Virus record (IMG/VR): IMGVR_UViG_2645727775_000019
Coordinates: 1-37,692 of that record
Direction: 5' to 3' (one strand)
Source: a virus
Taxonomy: Duplodnaviria; Heunggongvirae; Uroviricota; Caudoviricetes
DNA: 37,692 nucleotides
Shown: positions 1 to 37,692 of the stretch, piece by piece
How positions within the stretch are numbered: the first letter of the stretch is position 1
Layout: the number at the start of each line of letters is the position of its first letter
Position numbers and translations under genes: made by a program
Notes under the pieces: generated by a model
The model's database searches: none
What the model saw: only the letters and a program-made list of their open reading frames with translations
What the model was told of the DNA's origin: nothing

Positions 1-1158
1 ATGCTCACCGTTAAGCAGATTGAAGCAGCAAAGCCGAAAGAAAAACCATACCGCCTACTCGATGGTAATGGCCTGTACCTTTATGTCCCTGTATCAGGGA
101 AAAAGGTATGGCAGCTTCGCTACAAGATTGACGGTAAGGAGAAAATCCTGACCGTCGGAAAATATCCGCTTATGACTTTGCAGGAGGCAAGGGATAAGGC
201 ATGGACTGCGAGGAAAGACATCTCGGTTGGCATCGATCCGGTAAAGGCGAAAAAGGCTTCGTCTAACAACAATTCCTTTAGCGCCATTTACAAGGAATGG
301 TACGAGCACAAGAAGCAAGTCTGGTCAATAGGCTATGCAACTGAACTTGCAAAAATGTTTGATGACGACATTTTACCTATCATCGGCGGTCTTGAAATTC
401 AGGATATTGAGCCGATGCAACTGCTGGAAGTAATCCGCAGATTTGAAGATCGCGGTGCAATGGAACGAGCCAATAAAGCCCGCAGAAGATGCGGCGAGGT
501 TTTCCGTTACGCTATTGTCACCGGAAGGGCTAAATATAACCCGGCACCTGACCTTGCAGACGCCATGAAAGGATACCGCAAGAAGAACTTCCCGTTTCTT
601 CCAGCAGACCAGATCCCTGCATTCAACAAAGCACTGGCAACATTTTCAGGAAGCATCGTATCGCTCATTGCGACCAAAGTTTTACGCTACACAGCCCTAA
701 GAACGAAAGAGCTTCGTTCCATGCAATGGAAGAACGTCGATTTTGAAAACAGGATTATCACTATCGACGCCAGTGTGATGAAGGGCCGCAAGATTCATGT
801 TGTTCCTATGTCAGACCAGGTGGTTGAACTTCTCACTACGCTAAGCTCCATCACTAAACCAGTATCAGAGTTTGTTTTTGCCGGGCGCAACGATAAGAAG
901 AAGCCAATCTGCGAGAACGCGGTATTGCTTGTGATCAAACAAATCGGCTATGAGGGTCTGGAAAGCGGTCACGGATTCAGGCATGAATTCAGCACAATTA
1001 TGAACGAGCACGAATGGCCTGCTGACGCTATTGAAGTGCAACTGGCACATGCCAACGGCGGATCTGTGCGTGGGATTTACAACCATGCTCAGTATCTCGA
1101 TAAACGCAGAGAAATGATGCAATGGTGGGCGGACTGGCTTGATGAAAAGGTGGCATAG
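1..1158 (+). CDS. intS: P4-family tyrosine integrase (IntS-like)
   Basis: 385-aa ORF; N-terminus MLTVKQIEAAKPKEKPYRLLDGNGLYL is the typical P4-integrase arm-binding domain; C-terminal catalytic domain; length matches IntS. Confidence 0.9.
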   Translation: MLTVKQIEAAKPKEKPYRLLDGNGLYLYVPVSGKKVWQLRYKIDGKEKILTVGKYPLMTLQEARDKAWTARKDISVGIDPVKAKKASSNNNSFSAIYKEWYEHKKQVWSIGYATELAKMFDDDILPIIGGLEIQDIEPMQLLEVIRRFEDRGAMERANKARRRCGEVFRYAIVTGRAKYNPAPDLADAMKGYRKKNFPFLPADQIPAFNKALATFSGSIVSLIATKVLRYTALRTKELRSMQWKNVDFENRIITIDASVMKGRKIHVVPMSDQVVELLTTLSSITKPVSEFVFAGRNDKKKPICENAVLLVIKQIGYEGLESGHGFRHEFSTIMNEHEWPADAIEVQLAHANGGSVRGIYNHAQYLDKRREMMQWWADWLDEKVA

Positions 1159-1164
1159 CGCCAC

Positions 1165-1554
1165 CTACATCACAGGGCAATCATCAAACTCACCAGAACG
1201 CGCATCATTGATGATGTACGTTATCACCCCAAACAAATGCGACTCATCATCAAACAGGCTGGTCGGCTTTGGTATCTCCTCTACCGCTCCAGTCTCAAGA
1301 TTAATCAGATGTGGTTTAGGGTAGCGCTTGTATCGCTTCACTCTGAACTCATTGTCAACTGAACAAATCAGCAACGAGCCATCAAACGGCATCAGTGAAC
1401 TGTCAACGACGAGCAAAGCACCGTACATGATGCCTTCTCGCCAGTACGTTTTCCCTGACCGCATGAAGTACGTTGCCGATGGTTTGCTGATTAACGTCTC
1501 GTCGAGCGATATGCGTTGCTCAACGTAGTCTGCAGCCGGACTCGGGAATCCCAT
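1165..1554 (-). CDS. UmuD'-like (HumD-like) S24-fold protein, starting at the position of the UmuD self-cleavage site
   Basis: 129 aa beginning MGFPSPAADYVEQRI, matching UmuD from Gly25 onward (recalled sequence); true ATG start; the GDSM nucleophile motif reads GKTY here. Confidence 0.75.
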   Translation of the reverse strand: MGFPSPAADYVEQRISLDETLISKPSATYFMRSGKTYWREGIMYGALLVVDSSLMPFDGSLLICSVDNEFRVKRYKRYPKPHLINLETGAVEEIPKPTSLFDDESHLFGVITYIINDARSGEFDDCPVM

Positions 1555-1573
1555 GATGCACCTCAGTCATCAA

Positions 1574-1593
1574 TACTGGATAAAATCACAGTA
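1574..1593. promoter_or_regulatory. LexA (SOS) box overlapping the promoter of the UmuD'-like gene
   Basis: Plus-strand TACTGGATAAAATCACAGTA fits TACTG-N10-CAGTA; lies ~20 nt upstream of the minus-strand ATG and overlaps a TATACT -10-like hexamer. Confidence 0.6.
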
Positions 1594-1971
1594 TAAATGC
1601 TCTATATCAAATCAGCAAAGGAATAGGATAAGAATCTTTGCTGAACCGGTCTATATCATGAGACCCTTTGCAGGTTTACCAGAAAAAACCTTAGGTTTTA
1701 ATGAGCTAACAAAACGTGTCCTCCTAATCATTCTGGGTGCAAAGGTTAAGTTAATTCCTATGAATGAAATTCATGAAACAGTGCAAGTACAAGATGATAA
1801 AGAAGGTCTGCCATGAGTGCTTAAGGATGTGTTTGAATAATCCGCTATGCGTATGACATCCCTGGCTAAGGATAGTTCGCCATGTAGAGTTGTAGAATTG
1901 ATACAGGCTACCAGCATAATATCCAACGATAGCCTGCTCCGTATGTAGACATTATCTATATATAGATCCAC

Positions 1972-2946
1972 CTAAGTATATATTTTTGAGTTTGGTAATG
2001 CCTTCCTGAGCGCTTTAAAAACTATTGAAAGTACGTATTTATATACGTATGCAAAAATACAAACAATTACAACAAACAAGACGGATTTTATCCCATCTGA
2101 ACTTATAAACGATAATAAATGGTATGCTTTCATCAAAAACATGAATTCTATAAGATACATCTCGTAAGATAGTATGCCAATAAATTTCAATGGTGTTATG
2201 TTTATATTTGCAACTCTAAGAATCGATGTAATTCCAATTATAAGAAATGCGCTTGCTATATTTGTTGCTGCATAGTCAAAAAAACTAACATCAATCCCTT
2301 TATAAAAATAAAGGGATAAAATTAAGGACACCAAAGAAACTATGACAAACAAAAGTAATATCCATTTATCTATTGCATATCCTTTGACTTTTTCATACAC
2401 CACTCCAATTAGTGAACCTAGTGGAAATGCAGCAACGTATAGTCCGGCCCCTGCTGGAGGAGGGAATATATCTGCGTTTTTGTAAAGCAATACAGAAAAA
2501 AGGAAAAGGAAGGCTATTTTAATATTAATAGAGATATTAGCGCTAAAAATTAGAAAAAAAGCCAGATACCATATTATTATAAAAGATATATACCACATAC
2601 TAGGATCTATAGTGGCATTCAAATCAATGCCTAGTATGGTAATCGCTAAATGATAAAAGTCATCATTTGTAATTGCTGGATGTCCAAAAGCAATAATCCA
2701 AACAATGGTTATAATAGCGTATGGAACAAGTACTTTTGATAGCCTTTTTGAAAAAAAAGAATCCAACCCTGATTTAATGTAAGATTGCACAAGGCCAAAG
2801 CCTGACAGCATAAGGAATAGAGCAACACCATATGCCCCGGCGTGCGGGATTACATTTACATGCCCAAGCATGACAAGGAGAATAGCAACGCCTTTTAGTT
2901 CAATGGTGTGATCTCTATCAAAAATTACATTACTTATTTTTCTCAT
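1972..2946 (-). CDS. Acyltransferase family 3 integral membrane protein (O-antigen/LPS O-acetyltransferase-like), probable lysogenic conversion gene
   Basis: Multi-TM protein with N-terminal RKISNVIFDRDHTIELKGVAILLVMLGH motif typical of acyltransferase_3; very AT-rich compared with flanks; start taken at internal Met MRKISN. Confidence 0.75.
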   Translation of the reverse strand: MRKISNVIFDRDHTIELKGVAILLVMLGHVNVIPHAGAYGVALFLMLSGFGLVQSYIKSGLDSFFSKRLSKVLVPYAIITIVWIIAFGHPAITNDDFYHLAITILGIDLNATIDPSMWYISFIIIWYLAFFLIFSANISINIKIAFLFLFSVLLYKNADIFPPPAGAGLYVAAFPLGSLIGVVYEKVKGYAIDKWILLLFVIVSLVSLILSLYFYKGIDVSFFDYAATNIASAFLIIGITSILRVANINITPLKFIGILSYEMYLIEFMFLMKAYHLLSFISSDGIKSVLFVVIVCIFAYVYKYVLSIVFKALRKALPNSKIYT

Positions 2947-3149
2947 TTCATGACTACCTGCGCAGTTTTTCATTGCTAATGAATGTTGCATACTTTACAA
3001 AAGTATACTATACAGTATTTGCGTTGTCATTGAATATAAATATACCTGCGGCAGAATCATTATTGAGGAGGCCATAGCAGTGGATAATTCATCCACTGCC
3101 TAGTGCATATATCAATCGCATGATTGTATTTTTGACAAACCTGATTTAG

Positions 3150-3581
3150 CTATTCATCTGGAAAGGTTGGCCATATCACATGCTCTGGATCGGTTGAGAC
3201 ATTGATAGATTTAACGTCATTTTTAAATGCCAACCACGCCGACAGTTTCTCCTTGTTGGTGTCGTTGATTTCACCGAGCATCAGTTCTGTTCGCCAGTCG
3301 AGCATAGTTTCGTCCGCATGTGCCAGCAGTTGCTGGCGAATTTGTTCAGCGGCAGCAATAAGTTCGTCGTGTGTCGGTGGAGGCATATCCCCCCAGGCAG
3401 GATGTCCATCATCACCCGCGATGCGTACTTTCCCTTGCAACGTTCTGTCTTCAATAAATTCCAGGTAAGTGTCATATGTCACTTCGACAATATCAGCAAG
3501 TTCCCATCCGGCCTGTTCATGTTTCGCCACATCATTTTTAGCGAAAAAACTATTATTTGAGGCGCTATAAACCATTTCCAT
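3150..3581 (-). CDS. Tail fiber assembly protein (Tfa)
   Basis: 143 aa; start 1 nt after tail fiber stop; C-terminal region resembles Tfa chaperones. Confidence 0.8.
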   Translation of the reverse strand: MEMVYSASNNSFFAKNDVAKHEQAGWELADIVEVTYDTYLEFIEDRTLQGKVRIAGDDGHPAWGDMPPPTHDELIAAAEQIRQQLLAHADETMLDWRTELMLGEINDTNKEKLSAWLAFKNDVKSINVSTDPEHVIWPTFPDE

Positions 3582-16858: not shown

Positions 16859-17461
16859 TTACGCGTTAAGAAGGGTCAGGACGCGTTCACGCGCCATACG
16901 TTGATTAATGGCTTTCTGTAGCGCGCCGCTGTTGCGCGCCTCCTGCCATGCTTTCATGGAGCGAACAGCCGAGTCAGCTTCCTGATAGGCAGGATATGTC
17001 ACAGGACTGACATCCAGCAGACGGGAAAAGCGGGTTATCTCGCGAATAACAACCCCGTCCTCATCCTGATACCACTCTTCACCGTCACGGGCGACACGGA
17101 AAGCGAAAGATGACTGGTTAATATCTCCACGTTGCATCGGGGCCAGCACTAGATCACGAATGGTCTGTGTCTCCGGAGCCTGGATGTCATAGCGTAATCC
17201 GCGCTCATCAACTGAAAGATTCAGCGTGCCTGCTGCACTACGCCCAAGAATAAAATTAGGATCGTGGTTAAACAGTGCGCGTACATCATCACCAAGCACA
17301 TCGTCAAAAGCGCCGGGCCGGATGATTTCGCGGAATGAACCGAATATCAGCTCAGAACGACAGTCAAACACCGATCCATAACCGATAATGTGCGCCGGGT
17401 TATCGTCATGCCTCTCAGCACGCACCTCACCGCTGTAACAACGGATTTCACGGTCATTCAT
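16859..17461 (-). CDS. Prohead protease (HK97 family)
   Basis: Start at MNDREIR with GAGGGA site; ORF-track start at 17518 would overlap the portal gene by 64 nt. Confidence 0.8.
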   Translation of the reverse strand: MNDREIRCYSGEVRAERHDDNPAHIIGYGSVFDCRSELIFGSFREIIRPGAFDDVLGDDVRALFNHDPNFILGRSAAGTLNLSVDERGLRYDIQAPETQTIRDLVLAPMQRGDINQSSFAFRVARDGEEWYQDEDGVVIREITRFSRLLDVSPVTYPAYQEADSAVRSMKAWQEARNSGALQKAINQRMARERVLTLLNA

Positions 17462-18680
17462 TGGTTTTTCCCTCATCGTTTTTTGGGGGCTTAAAATCTC
17501 CTGCCGGGTTAGCAGCATTCACGCTTACCAGCATCTCGTCCAGCCCTTCAACCGGATTCATATCCTCGAATGCGCGGGCCTCATTACGGCTCATCCATCC
17601 ATCGGTAATAGCGAAGTGATAGAATTGTGCGCGCTCCTGCGGAGTTCCGCGTAAAAGCCCCGTCAGATTGAACCTGACGTAATACCCGGCGGCTAACTCA
17701 GCGCGGGTAAACAAGCGACGGTTAAGCTCCTGCTCCCAGTTCGTCACCCACGGCATCATCGTGTAGCGGACAAACTGAATCGCCTGCGCAGAAATATTGG
17801 AGAAAGTGGCTTTTTCGAGGTCATTAATCATGTGCGCAGGAATATTGAAAATACCGGCGATCATTGAACGGTTCAGCTTCATCATGTCAATGATCTGAGC
17901 GTCAACTGGCGACACAGTCAGTGCCTTGTAATCCAGATCGGCTGGCAGCAGCATGGTTTTGTTTTCCTGGCGGCGTAACGCCTGCGATGCCTTCTGCCAC
18001 TGATCTTTAAGCCAGCCCCAGCTTTCCTTATTGAGTCCGCTTTTAACGGATACTATCCCCGCCGGACGGGCATTACCGCTGAAGAAGCTTTCTGTGTACT
18101 TCTGACCGCTCATCCCCATGCCTATTGTTTCGGCATGTTGCATAATCGGACTCAGCCCCATCTTCTGATTATTACCCAGCGCACGGATGTGGATCATATC
18201 GTCCGGACTGATCGCAAACGCCCCATATTCGTTGTACAAACCGTAGGTATATCGGCCACCAGTATTCATCAGCGTCGTTTCCCACGGCATACAGCAATCC
18301 AGGGATATGACTTCACCGCGACGATTACGTTTCACCCAGGTATACCCATTCCCCCAGCCAAGGATGTGACGTTGCTTCAGTTCGCGCCATTTGTAGCTGG
18401 TTTGCCAGGTATTGGGCTCATCATGAACCAGATAAAACGCCGGATGATCGCGTGCGGGTTCAACCTTCCCCTTGTGCCTGCGCATAACATGCAACGGCAT
18501 CTGGGCAAGGCTGGAAGACAGGACATAGATACAGGAATACACCGCAGCCAGTTTCATCGCAGTCTCAGGACTGACATAAACGTCTGCCCGGAACAGCCCA
18601 TCAGTATCAACGGCATCACCGGTTATCGGGGTGGAAGGATTCTCCAGTGATTTACTTCTGAACAGAGCATCAAGCAGCAC
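17454..18680 (-). CDS. Portal protein (HK97 family)
   Basis: Probable GTG start giving (M)[16 protein letters not shown]; the longer ORF-track start (18728) lies inside the upstream small ORF. Confidence 0.8.
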   Translation of the reverse strand: MLLDALFRSKSLENPSTPITGDAVDTDGLFRADVYVSPETAMKLAAVYSCIYVLSSSLAQMPLHVMRRHKGKVEPARDHPAFYLVHDEPNTWQTSYKWRELKQRHILGWGNGYTWVKRNRRGEVISLDCCMPWETTLMNTGGRYTYGLYNEYGAFAISPDDMIHIRALGNNQKMGLSPIMQHAETIGMGMSGQKYTESFFSGNARPAGIVSVKSGLNKESWGWLKDQWQKASQALRRQENKTMLLPADLDYKALTVSPVDAQIIDMMKLNRSMIAGIFNIPAHMINDLEKATFSNISAQAIQFVRYTMMPWVTNWEQELNRRLFTRAELAAGYYVRFNLTGLLRGTPQERAQFYHFAITDGWMSRNEARAFEDMNPVEGLDEMLVSVNAANPAGDFKPPKNDEGKTNE

Positions 18681-18831
18681 GCGCCCCCCTTCTGGCCATA
18701 GCCAGTGCGCCCACCAGCAGTAAAGCACCGGACAAAATCAGAGCCGGAGCCATACCAAACTGCAGGTAAACCCCGCACGTAAGCAGGCCAAAACCAGCCA
18801 GCCCGATAACATCAGCAATTAGTGATTTCAT
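18670..18831 (-). CDS. Small hydrophobic protein (53 aa) between terminase large subunit and portal
   Basis: ATG overlaps terL stop as ATGA; translation [53 protein letters not shown]; below ORF-track length cut-off. Confidence 0.4.
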
Positions 18832-20561
18832 AGAATTAAGAGATCATCGTCCGGATCAAGAGATGAGAGGAAATCGTCAGGTTCTTTGAGCATTGCCCGA
18901 CCGATCGTCATAATCAGTGCAACCGCACCATCGATTTTGTTTTCCGCCTGCTCCTTGACGGGCTTCACTAAATCATCGTTACCTGGCATGTTTTTGCCGA
19001 CCACATTGCCGATACACCAGGTCATGATGGGATTGCCGTCATGATGAAAGCGTCCCGATTCAATCGCTGCCTCCAGCTCTTTCATCGGGTCGGACATATT
19101 GGCGAAGTTCTGGACGATAGTGACGGGATTCAGGTCTTCATCAGCAAGGTCATGTGACAACCCGGTCGCCCCGAAGGGGTCGATGGGTGACTCACTGACC
19201 GGGCTGATTTTGTTCGCCGCTTTGGCCTCTTCGAGGATGTAGCGATAATCCACCTCCGCACCATCGGTAACGGTCAGAACGCCCATTTCCACCCATTTCT
19301 GAAAACGTTCGGCTGTCCGGCGATCTTCATTTTTCTCGACGCTGTACACCGTGTCATACGGTACCCAGAAACGCGGGGCCACACTGTAGTAATGCGTTTT
19401 ACCGTCAATCTCGCGGGTATAAAGTCGCGCCATACTGTTCATATCCAGCTTACGCGCCAGGTCAAAAGCCAGAATGCACGGCTGCCCCTCGAACTGCTCA
19501 AGGGTCAGTGATTTATCCTCGCAGCTCTGCCAGCTCACCAGGTTGAAATACGCCGAACGCGCCGACACCCAGATATTGAGGTGTTTTGTTTTAAAGACGT
19601 TTGCCAGACGGGCGTTATTTTTCGCACGCTGCTGCTGACTTAACAAAAATTCGCGATAAACCGACACGCCAATATTTGGATTGGCTTTTTCCAGCACCTG
19701 CGGGTCGGTCCAGTCATCGCCTTCGTCAACGGTATAGATGATCCCGAACAGTTCATCGTTGGGTACCGACCCGTTGAGCATCTCGATAACTTCCCGTCGC
19801 TTGTCGTAGCACGGCCCCTCAATGTTGTACCCGGCAGTAGTAATGGCCCACATCAGTGGCTGACGTCGCGCCCCCATCCCGGTAAGCATCGTGGTGTAAA
19901 GCGCATCGGTGGCGTGCTCGTGATATTCATCCACCACCGCACAGTGGGGTGATGAACCATCACCGGGGTTACCGATCAGCGGTTCAAACCGCGCGCCATC
20001 CTCCGGACGATTCATGTTTGAGGCGTTAACCTCAATCCCGAACGCTTCCGTCAGCATGGGTGTGCGTTTACACATCAGTCGCGCCGGGCGAAAGACTTCC
20101 CACGCCTGTTTCTCTGTCGTGGCACCGGAATACACTTCCGCGCCAAACTCGTTATCACAGGCAAAACAATACAGGGCAACACCGGCAGAGATTGCCGATT
20201 TGCCGTTCTTACGGGGGATTTCGGTATACACCTCCCGGAAGCGGCGCAGCCGGGACCCTTTATTGACCCAGCCAAACGCACAGCAGACCACAAATAGCTG
20301 CCACGGCTCCAGCGTGATGGGCATCCTCTTGAATGCCCACTCACCCTTGGTGTGCGGCAACAGCTGAATAAATTTGGCGGCCCGTTCAGCCAGGTCCTTG
20401 TCGAAGCGGTAACGAAACGACTTACTTTTTTCCGCCATCAGGTCATCAAGATGGCGCTGGCAGGCCTGAATCACAAACTGGCAGGCCACAATCTTTCCCC
20501 GCACGACATCACGGGCATACTGATTGGCAGCATTTACGTTGGGGTAAGATTTCCGGCTCAT
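18828..20561 (-). CDS. Terminase large subunit
   Basis: 577 aa; ATPase and nuclease regions; ATGA overlap with terS. Confidence 0.9.
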
Positions 20562-21052
20562 GATTCGATGATTTTCAGAAACGGGTTAGTGGCTTTCTTC
20601 TGCCCCGCCAGGCCAATCAGACGCTGGCGGCTGCTGGGGTCGAGTCCGAGCATTGCCCCCGTGCTGCTCATCTCGGACTCCTGTTCTTTCTTGGCGGTCA
20701 GCTCCGGATTTTTGACCATGCCACCCATTGCACCGGTGATGGTGTTGCCCTGTCTGGCAATATTTTTCACGGCACGCCGCCAGAACTCGTAGGCCACGCA
20801 CCACCGCTCAAGCACCGCGAGGTCAGTCACGCACAGCAGGCCCTGACCGCAGAGTTCTTTGGTTGTCAGTTGCCACATGATCGTGGCGAGAGGGAGATCT
20901 TCTTCAGCGAACCACTCCGGTGGCTCAACACCTTTGATGGGCGTAAAAACAGGTTCATCTTTATTCAGGGCTCGCTTGCCGGGGTTTCCGGCCAGCGCCT
21001 TGCGCGCCGTTGGCTTGGGGCGACGCCCGGAACGCCCCGCCGTTCCAGCCAT
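20558..21052 (-). CDS. Terminase small subunit (P27 family)
   Basis: Start at ATG ([14 protein letters not shown]) with AGGAG site 9 nt upstream; ORF-track start is GTG at 21061. Confidence 0.8.
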
Positions 21053-21177
21053 ATGCGGCACTCCTGGTTAAATTTCATTTTTCGCGGGTATAAAAAAACG
21101 ATGGGGCGGGCAGTCCGGAAGACGTCAGGCCGCAGGGATTTGACCCGCCCCTCCCCTCAGGCAGTTGAGAATCATTA

Positions 21178-21528
21178 TCACTTCAACCGTTCACGGGCCG
21201 TCTTCGCCTTATGGCACGGCCAGCACAGGCTCTGCAGATTACTGTCTGCATCGGTGCCGCCATGCGCTTTAGGGATGATGTGGTCAACGGTTTTAGCTTC
21301 ACGCACCACACCGGCACGCAGACATAACTGACACAGGCCTTTGTCACGTTTCAGCACACGCGCACGGATAACGTCCCACTTCGAACCGTAGCCGCGCTGA
21401 TGACGGGATTGTCCTGGCTTGTATTGCTTCCAGCCTTCGCTTTTGTGGCTTTCGCAGTAGCCTGACGGGTCTGTCGTGGTATTACGGCAGCCGCGAACGC
21501 GGCAGGCTTTTGGAGTTCGAGGGGGCAT
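21178..21528 (-). CDS. HNH endonuclease (terminase-associated)
   Basis: 116 aa with CxxC...H-N-H...CxxC pattern; located just upstream of terS as in HK97-like cos phages. Confidence 0.85.
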   Translation of the reverse strand: MPPRTPKACRVRGCRNTTTDPSGYCESHKSEGWKQYKPGQSRHQRGYGSKWDVIRARVLKRDKGLCQLCLRAGVVREAKTVDHIIPKAHGGTDADSNLQSLCWPCHKAKTARERLK

Positions 21529-23854: not shown

Positions 23855-24520
23855 TCAGTTCGGTTTTGCAAGACTTACGTGCGAACTTGTCGCCTTTTGT
23901 TGTGAACGTGATCGCGTTACTGAGATAAGCGCACCGCTATCGAGTCGCATAAAGCAGCTACGCATTGCCAACCAGTGAGGCAGGTATGTCTCTGTCCAGG
24001 TGGATTTCGCCACGCCAACCAGTTCCGCCAGCTTCTGGTATTCGTAGGCATCTTTCCCGACCAACCCTGCTTTGACATCCTGCGCTGCCAGCCATATCAG
24101 CTTCTTCAGGCGCTCCATGGTCTTGCCTGCCACCCTCTTCGCGCCGAGATACCCCCTGAATTCAGACCACGCCCACTGGGTGATCGCCACCTGGTATTCA
24201 AAGCTGATGTTTTCACTGTAACTCCACAGCAACCACGCTTTCTGATGTTCTTCGAGAGACAGAACCGCGCGGCGCCATGAAGATGTTGAGAACTCAACCT
24301 GGCTGACCAGTGCAATGGATGAACCTTTTGCGTACGACTGCTTACCGGAAATCGGCGGATTATCCAGCGTAATCATCTTGCCCGTTACCTCATCCAGAAT
24401 GCGCGGCTTCTTTCGTTTATATGTACCAGTATCAAATTGTGCATGCTCCAGCCAGGCTTCAAGCTGTTCAACAGTCATACCAGGGTTAAAAAAATATGGC
24501 TGCTGCTTTTCGCCCTGCAT
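23855..24520 (-). CDS. Hypothetical protein (cargo gene X, 221 aa)
   Basis: Start at MQGEKQQPYFF with GGAGG site directly after the tR'-like terminator; the first 23 codons of the ORF-track version are the terminator hairpin itself; no family recognised by eye. Confidence 0.55.
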   Translation of the reverse strand: MQGEKQQPYFFNPGMTVEQLEAWLEHAQFDTGTYKRKKPRILDEVTGKMITLDNPPISGKQSYAKGSSIALVSQVEFSTSSWRRAVLSLEEHQKAWLLWSYSENISFEYQVAITQWAWSEFRGYLGAKRVAGKTMERLKKLIWLAAQDVKAGLVGKDAYEYQKLAELVGVAKSTWTETYLPHWLAMRSCFMRLDSGALISVTRSRSQQKATSSHVSLAKPN

Positions 24521-24531
24521 TATTGACCTCC

Positions 24532-24560
24532 AGAAAAGCAAAAACCCCGCCGAAGCGAGG
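24532..24560 (-). terminator. tR'-like intrinsic terminator just downstream of Q
   Basis: Minus strand CCTCGC-TTCG-GCGGGG hairpin followed by TTTTTGCTTTTCT. Confidence 0.65.
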
Positions 24561-24670
24561 TTTGTTATGATTTCGTTAACGGCAGACATACAAAGCCCAT
24601 CGTTAGGAGAATCCTAACCATATTTTTTGAAAAATGCAAGCATCATGTCGCCATCTTCGGCGAAAATCAT

Positions 24671-25423
24671 TTATCTTGTCACTTTTCTCAATTGTGTCTC
24701 TGCATATGCTTCTTCCTGCCAGCACTTTGTAACCAGTTTATCAATAACATCTGCATATCCTTTGTACCACTGATAATCCGTCAGGTCCGGTACCAGCTTC
24801 TGGACATGATGCCGCGCCAGTGTGGTTGGTAAACGGCTAAACCGGTTTCCATTGCAACGCCCACAAATCTTATAAACAGGCGTGCCATGAAGCCGGGTCC
24901 TTTTTTCATCCAGGACAATACCTTTACCCTTACACCCTCTGCACGCTGTGCTGACTTCTCCCTTACCATGACAATGCTGACATAGTTCCTTCACCCACTC
25001 CTCCTTGATAACAGATTCACCGCTTCTGGAGTGTTTCACCACTTCGCGCAATACATTATGAAATCCAGTACCTGCACAATGCTCACAGCGAGCCTTACTT
25101 GCCGCAGACCTGGAATAATCAGCAAAGGCAAAATTCACAAGGTAAGGGATGATCTGTAACCGGGTTTCTTCACTCAATTTGTTCAATGTCGGGTTATCCA
25201 GTGCCATCGCGTAATTGAGCAGACCTTCAATCGCAAATTGAGGATCCTGAACACCAACTTTTGCCAGGAATAAGGCAAACCCAAGCGGTGCTTTCGACTG
25301 CACCATCCCCTGCGCAGCCATCACATCCGTAATCGTTAAACCACCTGAGCCTGTCGCCGGTGCGTCATCGCTCAATTTTGGAGATTTTGGGGAGTAATAT
25401 TTTGGTAAGGCTTCAAGGTTCAT
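24671..25423 (-). CDS. Late-gene antiterminator Q (lambda-Q family, QuuQ-like)
   Basis: YYSPKSPKLSDDAPATG...TDVMAAQGM, FAFADYSRSAA, Cys-rich zinc-binding region and C-terminal ...RKVTR parallel lambda Q as recalled; ATG with GGAG site, 250 aa. Confidence 0.8.
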   Translation of the reverse strand: MNLEALPKYYSPKSPKLSDDAPATGSGGLTITDVMAAQGMVQSKAPLGFALFLAKVGVQDPQFAIEGLLNYAMALDNPTLNKLSEETRLQIIPYLVNFAFADYSRSAASKARCEHCAGTGFHNVLREVVKHSRSGESVIKEEWVKELCQHCHGKGEVSTACRGCKGKGIVLDEKRTRLHGTPVYKICGRCNGNRFSRLPTTLARHHVQKLVPDLTDYQWYKGYADVIDKLVTKCWQEEAYAETQLRKVTR

Positions 25424-25436
25424 GCTCGTTCTCCAC

Positions 25437-26432
25437 TTACGCCAATACGCCAATTGCCAGCGCACGATCGATAAAACGAAATATCAGCTCCAGCTGGGAG
25501 CCATACTTCTCTTCAAATGCCACGGTATCCGCATGCAGCTCGTCGTGATGCTTTCTGCACAAAGGCAACACAAAGAGGTCATGCGCTTTTGTACCCATTC
25601 CCCCCTGACCGTGACCTATCAGGTGGTGGGGATCATCAGCGGGCTTTCCACAACATGCACACGGCTGTGTCTTAACCCAGCGCGTGTACTTTTCATTAAC
25701 CCAGCGGCGACGTTTTGGGCGTAACATAAAAGACTCCGGCGACTCCGGATCCACTTTCAGCGCCAGCACCTTTTTCGCTTTATCTTGGATGATGCTGGTG
25801 GCAGGAACCGAAGGCACAAGGTCACTTTCCCGGGTGACAGACGGCACAACAGGTTTCGGTAATCTCAGCGCCTTACGGGCTGCGCTTTCAGGTAAGGCAT
25901 CCGCCAGGTCATTACGAATCAGCCACCAGCACAGTTCCGGCATTGTCACGGCATGGTTATCATCAAAACCGAGATCCCGACGGACTACAGACAACACCCA
26001 GCGGGCACAGTTATCCGTTGCCATTGATTCCAGCCGTTCCGTGAACTGATCGCGCAGCTGGTTATCGCAGTGCCAGCACAGACGGATTGCGCCCGGAGCG
26101 TGTCGCATTGTTGTCATGTTCTCGCTGTGCCAGTCGGAATGAAGCCACTGGCAGCCTTTTTCACGAAGTAACCAGCTTTCAAGACATTCCACGCCACCAG
26201 CACGACGGATCACTGCCTCATTGCGGAACACGGCCCGAACGGCAGGATCATCCGCCAGCGGTTGTGATGCCGCGGGAACGGCACCACTGGCGAAAGATGA
26301 ATAACGTTCCGGCTCAGGCTCCAGCAGGACACGCCCCTGCATAAACAAGGGCATCAGCTCTGAACCTGGCCTGAACAATACGATCCCCATACGCGGGGCA
26401 ATTTCAGGGGTCAGTAGTGCTCTCACGGTCAC
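25437..26432 (-). CDS. DUF968-family protein (YdfU-like) with C-terminal Cys/His HNH-like motif
   Basis: 331 aa; C-terminal CACCGKPADDPHHL...CRKHHDELH; located upstream of Q as ydfU is upstream of quuQ in Qin-type prophages. Confidence 0.65.
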   Translation of the reverse strand: MTVRALLTPEIAPRMGIVLFRPGSELMPLFMQGRVLLEPEPERYSSFASGAVPAASQPLADDPAVRAVFRNEAVIRRAGGVECLESWLLREKGCQWLHSDWHSENMTTMRHAPGAIRLCWHCDNQLRDQFTERLESMATDNCARWVLSVVRRDLGFDDNHAVTMPELCWWLIRNDLADALPESAARKALRLPKPVVPSVTRESDLVPSVPATSIIQDKAKKVLALKVDPESPESFMLRPKRRRWVNEKYTRWVKTQPCACCGKPADDPHHLIGHGQGGMGTKAHDLFVLPLCRKHHDELHADTVAFEEKYGSQLELIFRFIDRALAIGVLA

Positions 26433-35585: not shown

Positions 35586-35716
35586 TGGAGCCATACAGCC
35601 TCACACTCGATGAGTCCTGTTCATTTCTCAAGATATCCAGACCTACCATTGCTGCATCAATGCGGCTTTTTATTGCCTGATTTGCAGGTTCGATTCCATA
35701 TTCGGAGATAGCACTC

Positions 35717-35917
35717 ATGCAACACGAACTACAACCTGATTCACTGGTTGATTTGAAATTCATCATGGCTGATACTGGCTTCGGTAAGACCTTCATCTAT
35801 GACCGGATTAAGTCCGGCGACCTGCCTAAAGCCAAAGTTATCCACGGACGAGCAAGATGGTTATATCGTGACCATTGTGAATTCAAAAATAAGCTCTTAA
35901 GCCGCGCCAATGGGTAA
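35717..35917 (+). CDS. torI: AlpA/TorI-type excisionase (recombination directionality factor)
   Basis: 66 aa MQHELQPDSLVDLKFIMADTGFGKTFIYDRIKSGDLPKAKV...; winged-helix Xis fold family; adjacent to attR. Confidence 0.85.
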   Translation: MQHELQPDSLVDLKFIMADTGFGKTFIYDRIKSGDLPKAKVIHGRARWLYRDHCEFKNKLLSRANG

Positions 35918-35990
35918 AATAGCGGGTAAAATATTTTTCACATCTAAAAAACACCATTCCAATCAATCCCCTGCCGCCTCAAGTAGATGT

Positions 35991-36005
35991 CTGCAGGGGA
36001 CACCA
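35991..36005 (+). repeat. attR core: copy of tRNA 3' end (CTGCAGGGGACACCA)
   Basis: Acceptor-stem 3' half plus CCA; matches argW 3' end as recalled; plus orientation as expected when int lies downstream of the tRNA at attL. Confidence 0.6.
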
Positions 36006-36444
36006 GATACCCTTCAAACGATATCTACCTTCACCCCGTAAAAGATAAGTTTGGCAGCACATTTGCCCTATCTACTCATTTTTCCTGCAACAGGTTGAAA
36101 TCTCAACACGGTCAGAAAACGCTGATGACTAAACAGCCCTGGGCCGGGCGATGTAACCATCACACACAATCCTGATCGCGAAATATGGCGTGACTTGATA
36201 CTTCACTCCACAATGCTTTCCTTGATGAATTCGCAGGCCCGTGATACACGGGACAGGTCGCTGAATTACGACAATGCCCTGGAAATCAGCGAGCCGTGTA
36301 TCCAGAGTACATTTGAGCGACTGTACCAGAACATGAATGAGGCGTTTGGATTAGGCGATTATTAGCAGGGCTAAGCATTTTGGTATTATTATTTTCCGGT
36401 TGAGGGATATAGAGCTATCGACAACAACCGGAAAAAGTTTACGT

Positions 36445-37692
36445 TTATATTGCTGAAGGTACTGGCGTTTCCATCACTATTTGCTCACGTTTTTTACTCA
36501 GGAAGAAAATGCCAAATAGCAACATCAGGCAGACAATACCCGAAATTGCGAAAAAAACCGTCTGGTAGCCTGCGTGGTCAAAGAGTATCCCAGTCGGCGT
36601 TGAAAGCAGCACAATCCCCAACGAACTGGCAATTTGAAAACCAATCAGAAAGATCGTCGACGACAGGCGCTTATCAAAATTTGCCACGCTGTATTTGAAG
36701 ACGGATATGACACAAAGTGGAACCTCAATGGCATGTAACAGCTTCACTAATGAAATAATCCAGGGGTTAACGAATAGCGCGCAGGAAAGGATACGCAACG
36801 CCATAATCACAACACCGATAAGTAATGCATTTTTTGGCCCTACCCGATTCACAAAGAAAGGAATAATCGCCATGCACAGCGCTTCGAGTACCACCTGGAA
36901 TGAGTTGAGATAACCATACAGGCGCGTTCCTACATCGTGTGATTCGAATAAACCTGCATAAAAGACAGGAAAGAGTTGTTGATCAAAAATGTTATAGAAA
37001 GACCACGTCCCCACAATAAATATGACGAAAACCCAGAAGTTTCGATCCTTGAAAACTGCGATAAAATCCTCTTTTTTTACCCCTCCCGCATCCGCCGCTA
37101 TGCACTGGTGATCCTTATCTTTAAAACGCATGTTGATCATCATAAATACAGCGCCAAATAGCGAGACCAACCAGAAGTTGATATGGGGACTGATACTAAA
37201 AAATATACCGGCAAAGAACGCGCCAATAGCATAGCCAAAAGATCCCCAGGCGCGCGCTGTTCCATATTCGAAATGAAAATTTCGCGCCATTTTTTCGGTG
37301 AAGCTGTCAAGCAAACCGCATCCCGCCAGATACCCCAGGCCAAAAAAGAGCGCCCCCAGAATTAGACCTGCAGAAAAATTGCTTTGCAGTAACGGTTCAT
37401 AAACGTAAATCATAAACGGTCCGGTCAAGACCAGAATGAAACTCATACACCAGATGAGCGGTTTCTTCAGACCGAGTTTATCCTGAACGATGCCGTAGAA
37501 CATCATAAATAGAATGCTGGTAAACTGGTTGACCGAATAAAGTGTACCTAATTCCGTCCCTGTTAATCCTAGATGTCCTTTCAGCCAAATAGCGTATAAT
37601 GACCACCACAGCGACCAGGAAATAAAAAAGAGAAATGAGTAACTGGATGCAAAACGATAGTACGCATTTCTGAATGGAATATTCAGTGCCAT
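36445..37692 (-). CDS. cscB: LacY-family oligosaccharide:H+ symporter (sucrose permease CscB-like), host gene
   Basis: 415 aa, 12-TM MFS permease with LacY-like N-terminus; outside the prophage. Confidence 0.75.
   Translation of the reverse strand: MALNIPFRNAYYRFASSYSFLFFISWSLWWSLYAIWLKGHLGLTGTELGTLYSVNQFTSILFMMFYGIVQDKLGLKKPLIWCMSFILVLTGPFMIYVYEPLLQSNFSAGLILGALFFGLGYLAGCGLLDSFTEKMARNFHFEYGTARAWGSFGYAIGAFFAGIFFSISPHINFWLVSLFGAVFMMINMRFKDKDHQCIAADAGGVKKEDFIAVFKDRNFWVFVIFIVGTWSFYNIFDQQLFPVFYAGLFESHDVGTRLYGYLNSFQVVLEALCMAIIPFFVNRVGPKNALLIGVVIMALRILSCALFVNPWIISLVKLLHAIEVPLCVISVFKYSVANFDKRLSSTIFLIGFQIASSLGIVLLSTPTGILFDHAGYQTVFFAISGIVCLMLLFGIFFLSKKREQIVMETPVPSAI

Follow-up and report, generated by a model that had tools for sequence, protein, structure and literature searches.

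A probable cos site of the SfI/SfV/phiP27 type between the HNH endonuclease and small terminase genes of an Escherichia coli-type prophage

The closest described relatives of the locus treated here are found in SfI, SfV, SfII and SfIV, serotype-converting phages of Shigella and E. coli that possess HK97-like heads and a small terminase (TerS) of the P27 family. Outward sequencing of SfI virion DNA from both sides, compared with the prophage, left a 10-nt gap, 5'-TGCCCGCCCC-3', from which the authors concluded that packaging is of the cos type, like that of SfV (PMC3636060). In HK97, the cos ends carry 10-nt 3' overhangs, TerS binds at +15..+29 downstream of the cut, where an A-tract is read by its shape, and the HNH protein gp74 stimulates cos cleavage (PMC11331095, PMC9410871). 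Moreover, the Stx2e phage phiP27 bears an annotated 'cos-site', CGCCCGCCCC. The cos of the SfI/SfV/phiP27 group is already known, and the site described below is an ordinary known element of this kind.

In the window, by which the whole 37,692-nt stretch of analysed DNA is meant, open reading frames and Pfam matches place the cos locus between an HNH endonuclease gene and the terS-terL-portal genes, the order on the minus strand being lysis genes, HNH endonuclease, intergenic region, terS, terL and portal (Table 1). The packaging genes are intact open reading frames with full-length family matches, and among the 666 terS homologues found, those of 99-100% identity are named P27-family terminase small subunit. 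Judged from the sequence, the ATG of terS with the ribosome-binding site listed in Table 1 is a more likely start than GTG 21061, and the annotation of SfV orf1 uses the same start; with this ATG taken, the intergenic region comprises 21053-21177 (125 nt). An earlier, sequence-only reading of this DNA had assigned the feature to 21062-21177 between HNH and terS, of which the location stands, while the left edge had been set by the less likely GTG. The HNH-cos-terS region is 97-100% identical to that of E. coli, Shigella and Salmonella phages of the SfV/SfI/SfII/SfIV group, with the same gene order and no difference of substance at cos; the window copy is an E. coli-type prophage whose ends are assigned by homology.

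The 10-mer at 21112..21103 of the minus strand (plus strand 21103-21112, GGGGCGGGCA) is identical to the SfI cohesive end, and the SfI record, which was linearised by its authors to finish with the cos site, ends at the position of window 21103. The annotated cos-site of phiP27 occupies the homologous position in the same register, being preceded by GGGGAGGGGCGGGTCAAATC, 20 nt and GGAC and followed by ...ATTTTTACACCCGCGAAAT; it differs in the first overhang base (C, against T in the window) and in a few positions of the right block, with about 81% identity over 80 nt. The family 10-mer, YGCCCGCCCC, is likewise present at the expected place in the window. On the strength of these matches, nicks are predicted at 21103/21102 on the minus strand and at 21112/21113 on the plus strand, which would generate 10-nt 3' overhangs. 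The 3' polarity is proposed for the window phage by analogy, because a gap in run-off reads from both sides fits recessed 5' ends and because the overhangs of HK97 are 3' and 10 nt long. The breakpoint of the SfV and SfIV records is 21119/21120; it precedes the SfI overhang by 7 nt, a difference that may be due to a loose linearisation of these records. Very probably, then, the cos site of a temperate phage of the SfV/SfI/phiP27 type with an HK97-type packaging machine lies here, its ends being placed by homology.

The HK97 genome itself offers a further register. Its record ends in ...GGGCAGGGGGGGGGATCAAATC, 20 nt, TGAC and CGCCGCCAAA, and starts with GTTTGAATTTAACGCTAACCCGATTTTTTTAG, so that the left half of its cos is homologous to that of the window in exact register, namely a G-run with TCAAATC, 20 nt, TGAC and a 10-nt overhang. 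A position weight matrix of the left half (54 columns, built from 53 relatives with P27-type terS, HK97 excluded) was run over both strands of the whole HK97 genome and returned a single top match at 39679-39732, which ends at the last base of the record and scores +35.3 versus -9.6 for the next best (z 7.1); in phiP27, this matrix gives a match whose end coincides exactly with the annotated cos-site. The right-half matrix gave no match anywhere in the HK97 genome. The proteins are divided in the same manner: TerL, portal and HNH of the window are homologous to HK97 gp2, gp3 and gp74 (E 2e-30, 2e-43 and 2e-10), while its TerS shows no BLASTP similarity to gp1 and carries PF05119, no Pfam family being recognised in gp1. 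Thus the left half of cos goes with homologous TerL, HNH and portal proteins, and the right half with differing terS families.

Within the right half, whose sequence is unrelated between the two phages by matrix scan, one likeness to HK97 is nevertheless seen, namely an ACCCG core next to an A/T tract, a few turns beyond the nick on its downstream side. By the HK97 genome sequence, the +15..+29 segment bound by its TerS is CTAACCCGATTTTTT, A-tract included, with the core at +18..+22; in the window, the core stands at +14..+18 and, together with its flanking A/T tracts, covers +13..+25 within a near-invariant block. The overhangs also differ (CGCCGCCAAA in HK97 versus TGCCCGCCCC in the window). 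Searches with the predicted TerS structure against known folds gave no useful match; because of this, and because the terS families show no detectable relationship in sequence, the TerS-DNA mechanism of HK97 is carried over to the window phage as an analogy. The proposal of the sequence-only reading that a cos site lies here, in an HNH-terS-terL module of the HK97 type, is borne out by the SfI 10-mer, by the registers of phiP27 and HK97 and by the homologous TerL, portal and HNH proteins; the comparison with known HK97-like cos sites that it named as a check has placed the window register on the HK97 genome end and the phiP27 cos-site. Its further statement that the HNH protein assists cos cleavage in HK97-type phages agrees with the role of gp74 in HK97, to which the window HNH protein is homologous.

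A more distant parallel is provided by lambda, whose cos (cosQ-cosN-cosB) also consists of an upstream element, a nicking site and a downstream small-terminase site and is likewise flanked by the lysis genes and the small terminase gene. The cos of lambda has 12-nt 5' overhangs and is not known to involve an HNH protein or to share sequence with the site described here. The terminase genes of the window belong to the HK97 and P27 families, and the likeness to lambda is one of layout alone.

Table 1. Genes and cos subsites of the packaging locus in the window (mean pairwise identity among the 53 aligned relatives; distances counted from the top-strand nick).
Feature	Position	Strand	Mean pairwise identity	Remarks
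HNH endonuclease gene (gp74-like packaging accessory nuclease)	21178..21528	-		PF01844, E 2.3e-16; 38% identity over 65 aa to HK97 gp74, E 2e-10
Upstream cos subsite, GGGGAGGGGCGGG + TCAAATC (GGGGAGGGGCGGGTCAAATC)	21156..21137	-	0.75	-54..-35; register shared by HK97
Spacer, 20 nt, free sequence	21117..21136	-	0.44	length constant in almost all 53 relatives and in HK97
Nicking region (cosN-like), GGAC + 10-nt overhang TGCCCGCCCC	21103..21116	-	0.67 (NNAC + overhang)	matches SfI ends, phiP27 and HK97 register
Near-invariant block (cosB-like), ATTTTTATACCCGCGAAAAATGAAATTTAA, T(T)TTTTTATACCCGCGAAAAATGAAATTTAA	21068..21098	-	0.89	+5..+35; opens with the T-run
Small terminase gene terS (P27 family)	20558..21052	-		PF05119, E 2.3e-21; ATG 21052; AGGAG RBS 21065..21061
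Large terminase gene terL (ATPase + nuclease)	18828..20561	-		PF03354, PF20441; 27% identity to HK97 gp2, E 2e-30
Portal protein gene	17454..18728	-		PF04860, E 3e-98; 26% identity to HK97 gp3, E 2e-43

The subsites listed in Table 1 emerged from a comparison of 62 loci with terS relatives ranging from 99% down to 30% identity, one genome per species being taken; with a shared motif as anchor, 53 distinct upstream regions of these loci were aligned with MAFFT. An earlier scan of viral contigs had furnished 99-100% identical copies only. The alignment, which spans Enterobacterales, Orbaceae (Gilliamella), Comamonadaceae and Alcaligenaceae, falls into a single register that is gap-free save for one or two single-base exceptions. 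Against identities of 0.83/0.88/0.44 at codon positions 1/2/3 of terS, the near-invariant block is more conserved than positions 1 and 2, and strong purifying selection therefore acts on the blocks at the DNA level, their identity lying above the third-position rate. The spacers (0.40-0.44), including about five variable bases between the overhang and the near-invariant block, drift in sequence at approximately the third-position rate and retain their length. Conservation in the nicking region is clustered at the left nick (AC/NGCC..C, the slash marking the nick), the bases at the right nick being variable, and we propose from this pattern that the specificity of the overhang region resides mainly at the left nick, AC/NGCC. 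In the window, the G-block and the downstream ATTTTTAYACCCGCGAAA block stand at the fixed spacing seen in the 53 relatives, the left-half and right-half matrices give one match each, both at the cos locus, and the near-invariant block, which is unchanged in 80 close relatives, occurs once.

The near-invariant block is probably the small-terminase binding site of the P27 terS family (cosB-like), a reading made by analogy because the block is conserved and placed where the TerS of HK97 binds. For the G-run + TCAAATC element, the hypothesis is put forward that it is a cosQ-like element, or a nuclease-positioning element recognised by TerL or HNH, because it is conserved, is held at a fixed distance from the nick and is inherited together with TerL and HNH, not with terS; its analogy to lambda cosQ is one of position only. 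Judged by eye, an IHF site or a G-quadruplex in the G-block seems unlikely, the TTR part of the IHF consensus and a fourth G-run being missing in most relatives.

The feature that had drawn attention to this region was a GC-rich palindrome. GGGGCGGG (21103-21110) and CCCGCCCC (21144-21151) are indeed perfect reverse complements of 8 bp with a 33-nt spacer, and the downstream arm is followed on the minus strand by ATCG and then, after this 4-nt gap, by the T7 run that had been noticed, corresponding to A7 at 21092-21098 of the plus strand. On its own, the inverted repeat is not statistically remarkable: when the 125-nt intergenic region was shuffled 2,000 times with its dinucleotides preserved, 9.6% of the shuffles contained a perfect repeat of this kind (8 bp or longer, spacer of at most 60 nt), and the whole window holds 74 such pairs of 8-mers, of which 4 are GC-rich. 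The position of the SfI 10-mer (minus strand, 21112..21103) makes the downstream arm part of the cohesive end, of which it accounts for eight of the ten bases, while the upstream arm lies inside the conserved G-run + TCAAATC element; the perfect match of the two arms is confined to the SfV-like clade.

Whether the repeat does anything as a unit was weighed on this background. Its arms might be inverted copies of a recognition sequence for a dimeric or multimeric protein (HNH or TerL), or might form a cruciform that marks the cut site, and it speaks for this that in many relatives (70% of the alignment cells pairable), and loosely in HK97, the G-block is similar to the overhang region read as its reverse complement, a resemblance that in the family consensus extends to the flanking GTC/GAC. 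Such pairability, however, equals that of the shuffled control and persists at 56-70% when the partner is slid by 1-3 columns, because a G-run is being matched with a C-run and composition suffices. In addition, several of the 80 loci whose terS is at least 99% identical have GGGGGAGG in the upstream arm and an unchanged overhang, so that the arms do not compensate for each other, and the perfect 8-mer match is a peculiarity of SfV-like phages. With no covariation, and with the repeat broken in close as well as distant relatives, a functional palindrome was rejected and is regarded as unlikely. We conclude from the comparison that the 8-bp palindrome is incidental and follows from the opposite orientation of a G-run element and a C-rich overhang, since the pairability does not exceed that of shuffled sequences, covariation is lacking and the repeat is broken in relatives. 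Accordingly, of the idea that a GC-rich palindrome marks cos here, the site has held and the palindrome as a functional unit has not, its arms belonging to two separately conserved subsites whose complementarity is lost without compensation in most relatives.

The other function offered for the palindrome, that of a Rho-independent terminator in which palindrome and T7 would stop transcription coming from the lysis/HNH genes or, in the lysogen, keep read-through out of the structural genes, is judged quite improbable. The minimum free energy fold does pair the G-run with the C-rich overhang, the helix ending 1 nt before the T7, but its arms enclose a loop of 33 nt instead of a compact one of 3-8 nt, an arm-to-T7 gap of 4 nt remains, and the terminator scan does not flag the site. 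The folding energy is ordinary (z -0.27 against dinucleotide and -0.95 against mononucleotide shuffles), RNAalifold found zero consensus pairs in the 53 relatives, the arm helix can pair in 70.3% of the alignment cells versus 72.3% in shuffles, and three of the eight arm pairs are unpaired in most relatives. The T-run, moreover, is part of the most conserved block of primary sequence. Although three Xenorhabdus loci (L115-L117) have canonical hairpins of 9-10 bp directly followed by T7 in the same place, many relatives have no terminator-like hairpin within 3 nt before the T-run, and the Xenorhabdus hairpins over cos are specific to their clade. Two Q-type antiterminator genes upstream of the lysis genes also weigh against it, since by lambdoid analogy late transcription should cross cos into terS, terL and the head genes. 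As a general feature, the terminator failed the scan, the comparison of folding with shuffles, RNAalifold and the pair counting for both the arm helix and a local hairpin of the Xenorhabdus type; it was rejected because consensus structure, covariation and unusual stability are all wanting. That the whole arrangement is a chance repeat in the non-functional spacer of a decayed prophage agrees with the frequency of such repeats, which alone are expected in about 10% of shuffles; it is hardly credible beside surrounding blocks that, in different genera and orders, are conserved more strongly than coding positions, that coincide with experimentally determined phage ends and that adjoin intact packaging genes with full-length family matches.

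For the cos site, then, a mechanism modelled on HK97 may be proposed, with three conserved parts at fixed spacing (G-run + TCAAATC; NNAC + overhang; the T-run block of about 30 bp). After induction, the prophage DNA would form concatemers, on which TerS, as a ring, would bind the downstream block and recruit TerL. TerL and the HNH protein, which is encoded just upstream, would then nick the strands 10 nt apart at NNAC/N10/, leaving the overhang TGCCCGCCCC-3' at the HNH-side end. Packaging would start from the terS side, run into the head genes toward lower window coordinates and end at the next cos, where the motor would meet the G-run element and then the nicking site, and TerS bound just beyond the nicking site would serve as a roadblock, as proposed for HK97. 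The overhang is devoid of two-fold symmetry, which fits the published suggestion for HK97 that each strand is cut by a different nuclease.

A tentative extension of this scheme, which we hold to be possible but rather doubtful, is that the left half (G-run + TCAAATC, 20-nt spacer, NNAC and overhang) is a widely shared module for recognition and termination, read by the TerL/HNH/portal part of HK97-type packaging machines regardless of the terS family, so that cos specificity would be modular and, in HNH-dependent cos phages, the long-missing counterpart of cosQ would be the G-block. If so, recombination would exchange the left half without the right half, which is linked to terS, as a mosaic joint at cos in close relatives suggests. 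In two Klebsiella phages (MK422452.1 and MK422450.1), the similarity to the HK97 cos junction (76-80% identity) is limited to its left half, G-run through overhang, which fits a separable left module. In a Chloroflexota metagenome-assembled genome (MAG) (L145), the left-half matrix, built from proteobacterial loci, scores +18.6 at 1406-1459 (next best -8.5), ending 41 nt upstream of a 31%-identical terS, and the G-run architecture may accordingly be very widespread; the same scan of a Planctomicrobium locus (L146) gave no such match.

In the 80 IMG/VR relatives with terS at least 99% identical (L005-L084; window 21048-21187), the stretch from the overhang to terS is essentially invariant. Several unrelated sequence types are met with in front of the G-run, in the HNH 3' end and its flank, which suggests that a recombination joint lies at cos or immediately upstream of it. 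The first 30 or so residues of TerS (window 20963-21052) hardly vary among homologues with overall identities as low as 65% and are disordered in the model prediction; by analogy with HK97 TerS (Arg7), this N-terminal arm may contact DNA.

About a fifth of the complete E. coli genomes (1,121 of 5,426) contain the 125-nt intergenic sequence, and among the matches listed, none of eight carried a feature annotation at the cos site. The location of cos fixes the virion genome ends and the packaging direction, which aids the annotation of a common E. coli prophage type, and the candidate TerS site of about 30 bp for the P27 terS family, together with the upstream G-run shared with HK97, provides concrete starting points for the study of HK97-type packaging. 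A literature search on the conserved motifs and on the determination of the phiP27 cos returned nothing relevant, and the two-part layout, the near-invariant block of about 30 bp and the G-run shared with HK97 were absent from the searchable literature, of which the coverage was partial; no novelty is claimed for them.

Several further observations were made in the prophage and its relatives. In Xenorhabdus L115, L116 and L117, some 110 nt ahead of terS, the G-run and the spacer after it are fully complementary and form a 12-bp hairpin that holds TCAAATC in its loop, and a second hairpin of 9-10 bp around the overhang core is directly followed by T7, so that cos is overlain by a terminator-like structure, the folding z being about -5. 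The tandem Q-type antitermination genes of the window (23855-24589 and 24671-25465, both on the minus strand) lie upstream of the lysis cassette and are of two different kinds, one matching PF06323 (Phage_antiter_Q) and the other PF03589 (Antiterm) with a DnaJ-type CXXCXGXG zinc motif. At its start, the window holds a complete integrase gene (1-1158, plus strand), which adjoins the tail end of the prophage (window 1-3581) and whose 3' end abuts an S24-peptidase-like ORF (1165-1554, minus strand); at the other end (window 35600-37692) stands lacY (36445-37692, minus strand), which is not accompanied by any ORF of lacA size. An acyltransferase-3 gene (1972-2991, minus strand), possibly a moron of the O-antigen acetylase type, adjoins the tail-fibre assembly genes. 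Finally, a MAG contig labelled 'Bacillota bacterium' (L085, JAEWTL010000102.1) carries terS and cos at 99% identity, and a partial terS homologue (P0112) bears the label Leptospira interrogans; in both cases, enterobacterial phage DNA seems to have been mis-binned or to be a contamination.
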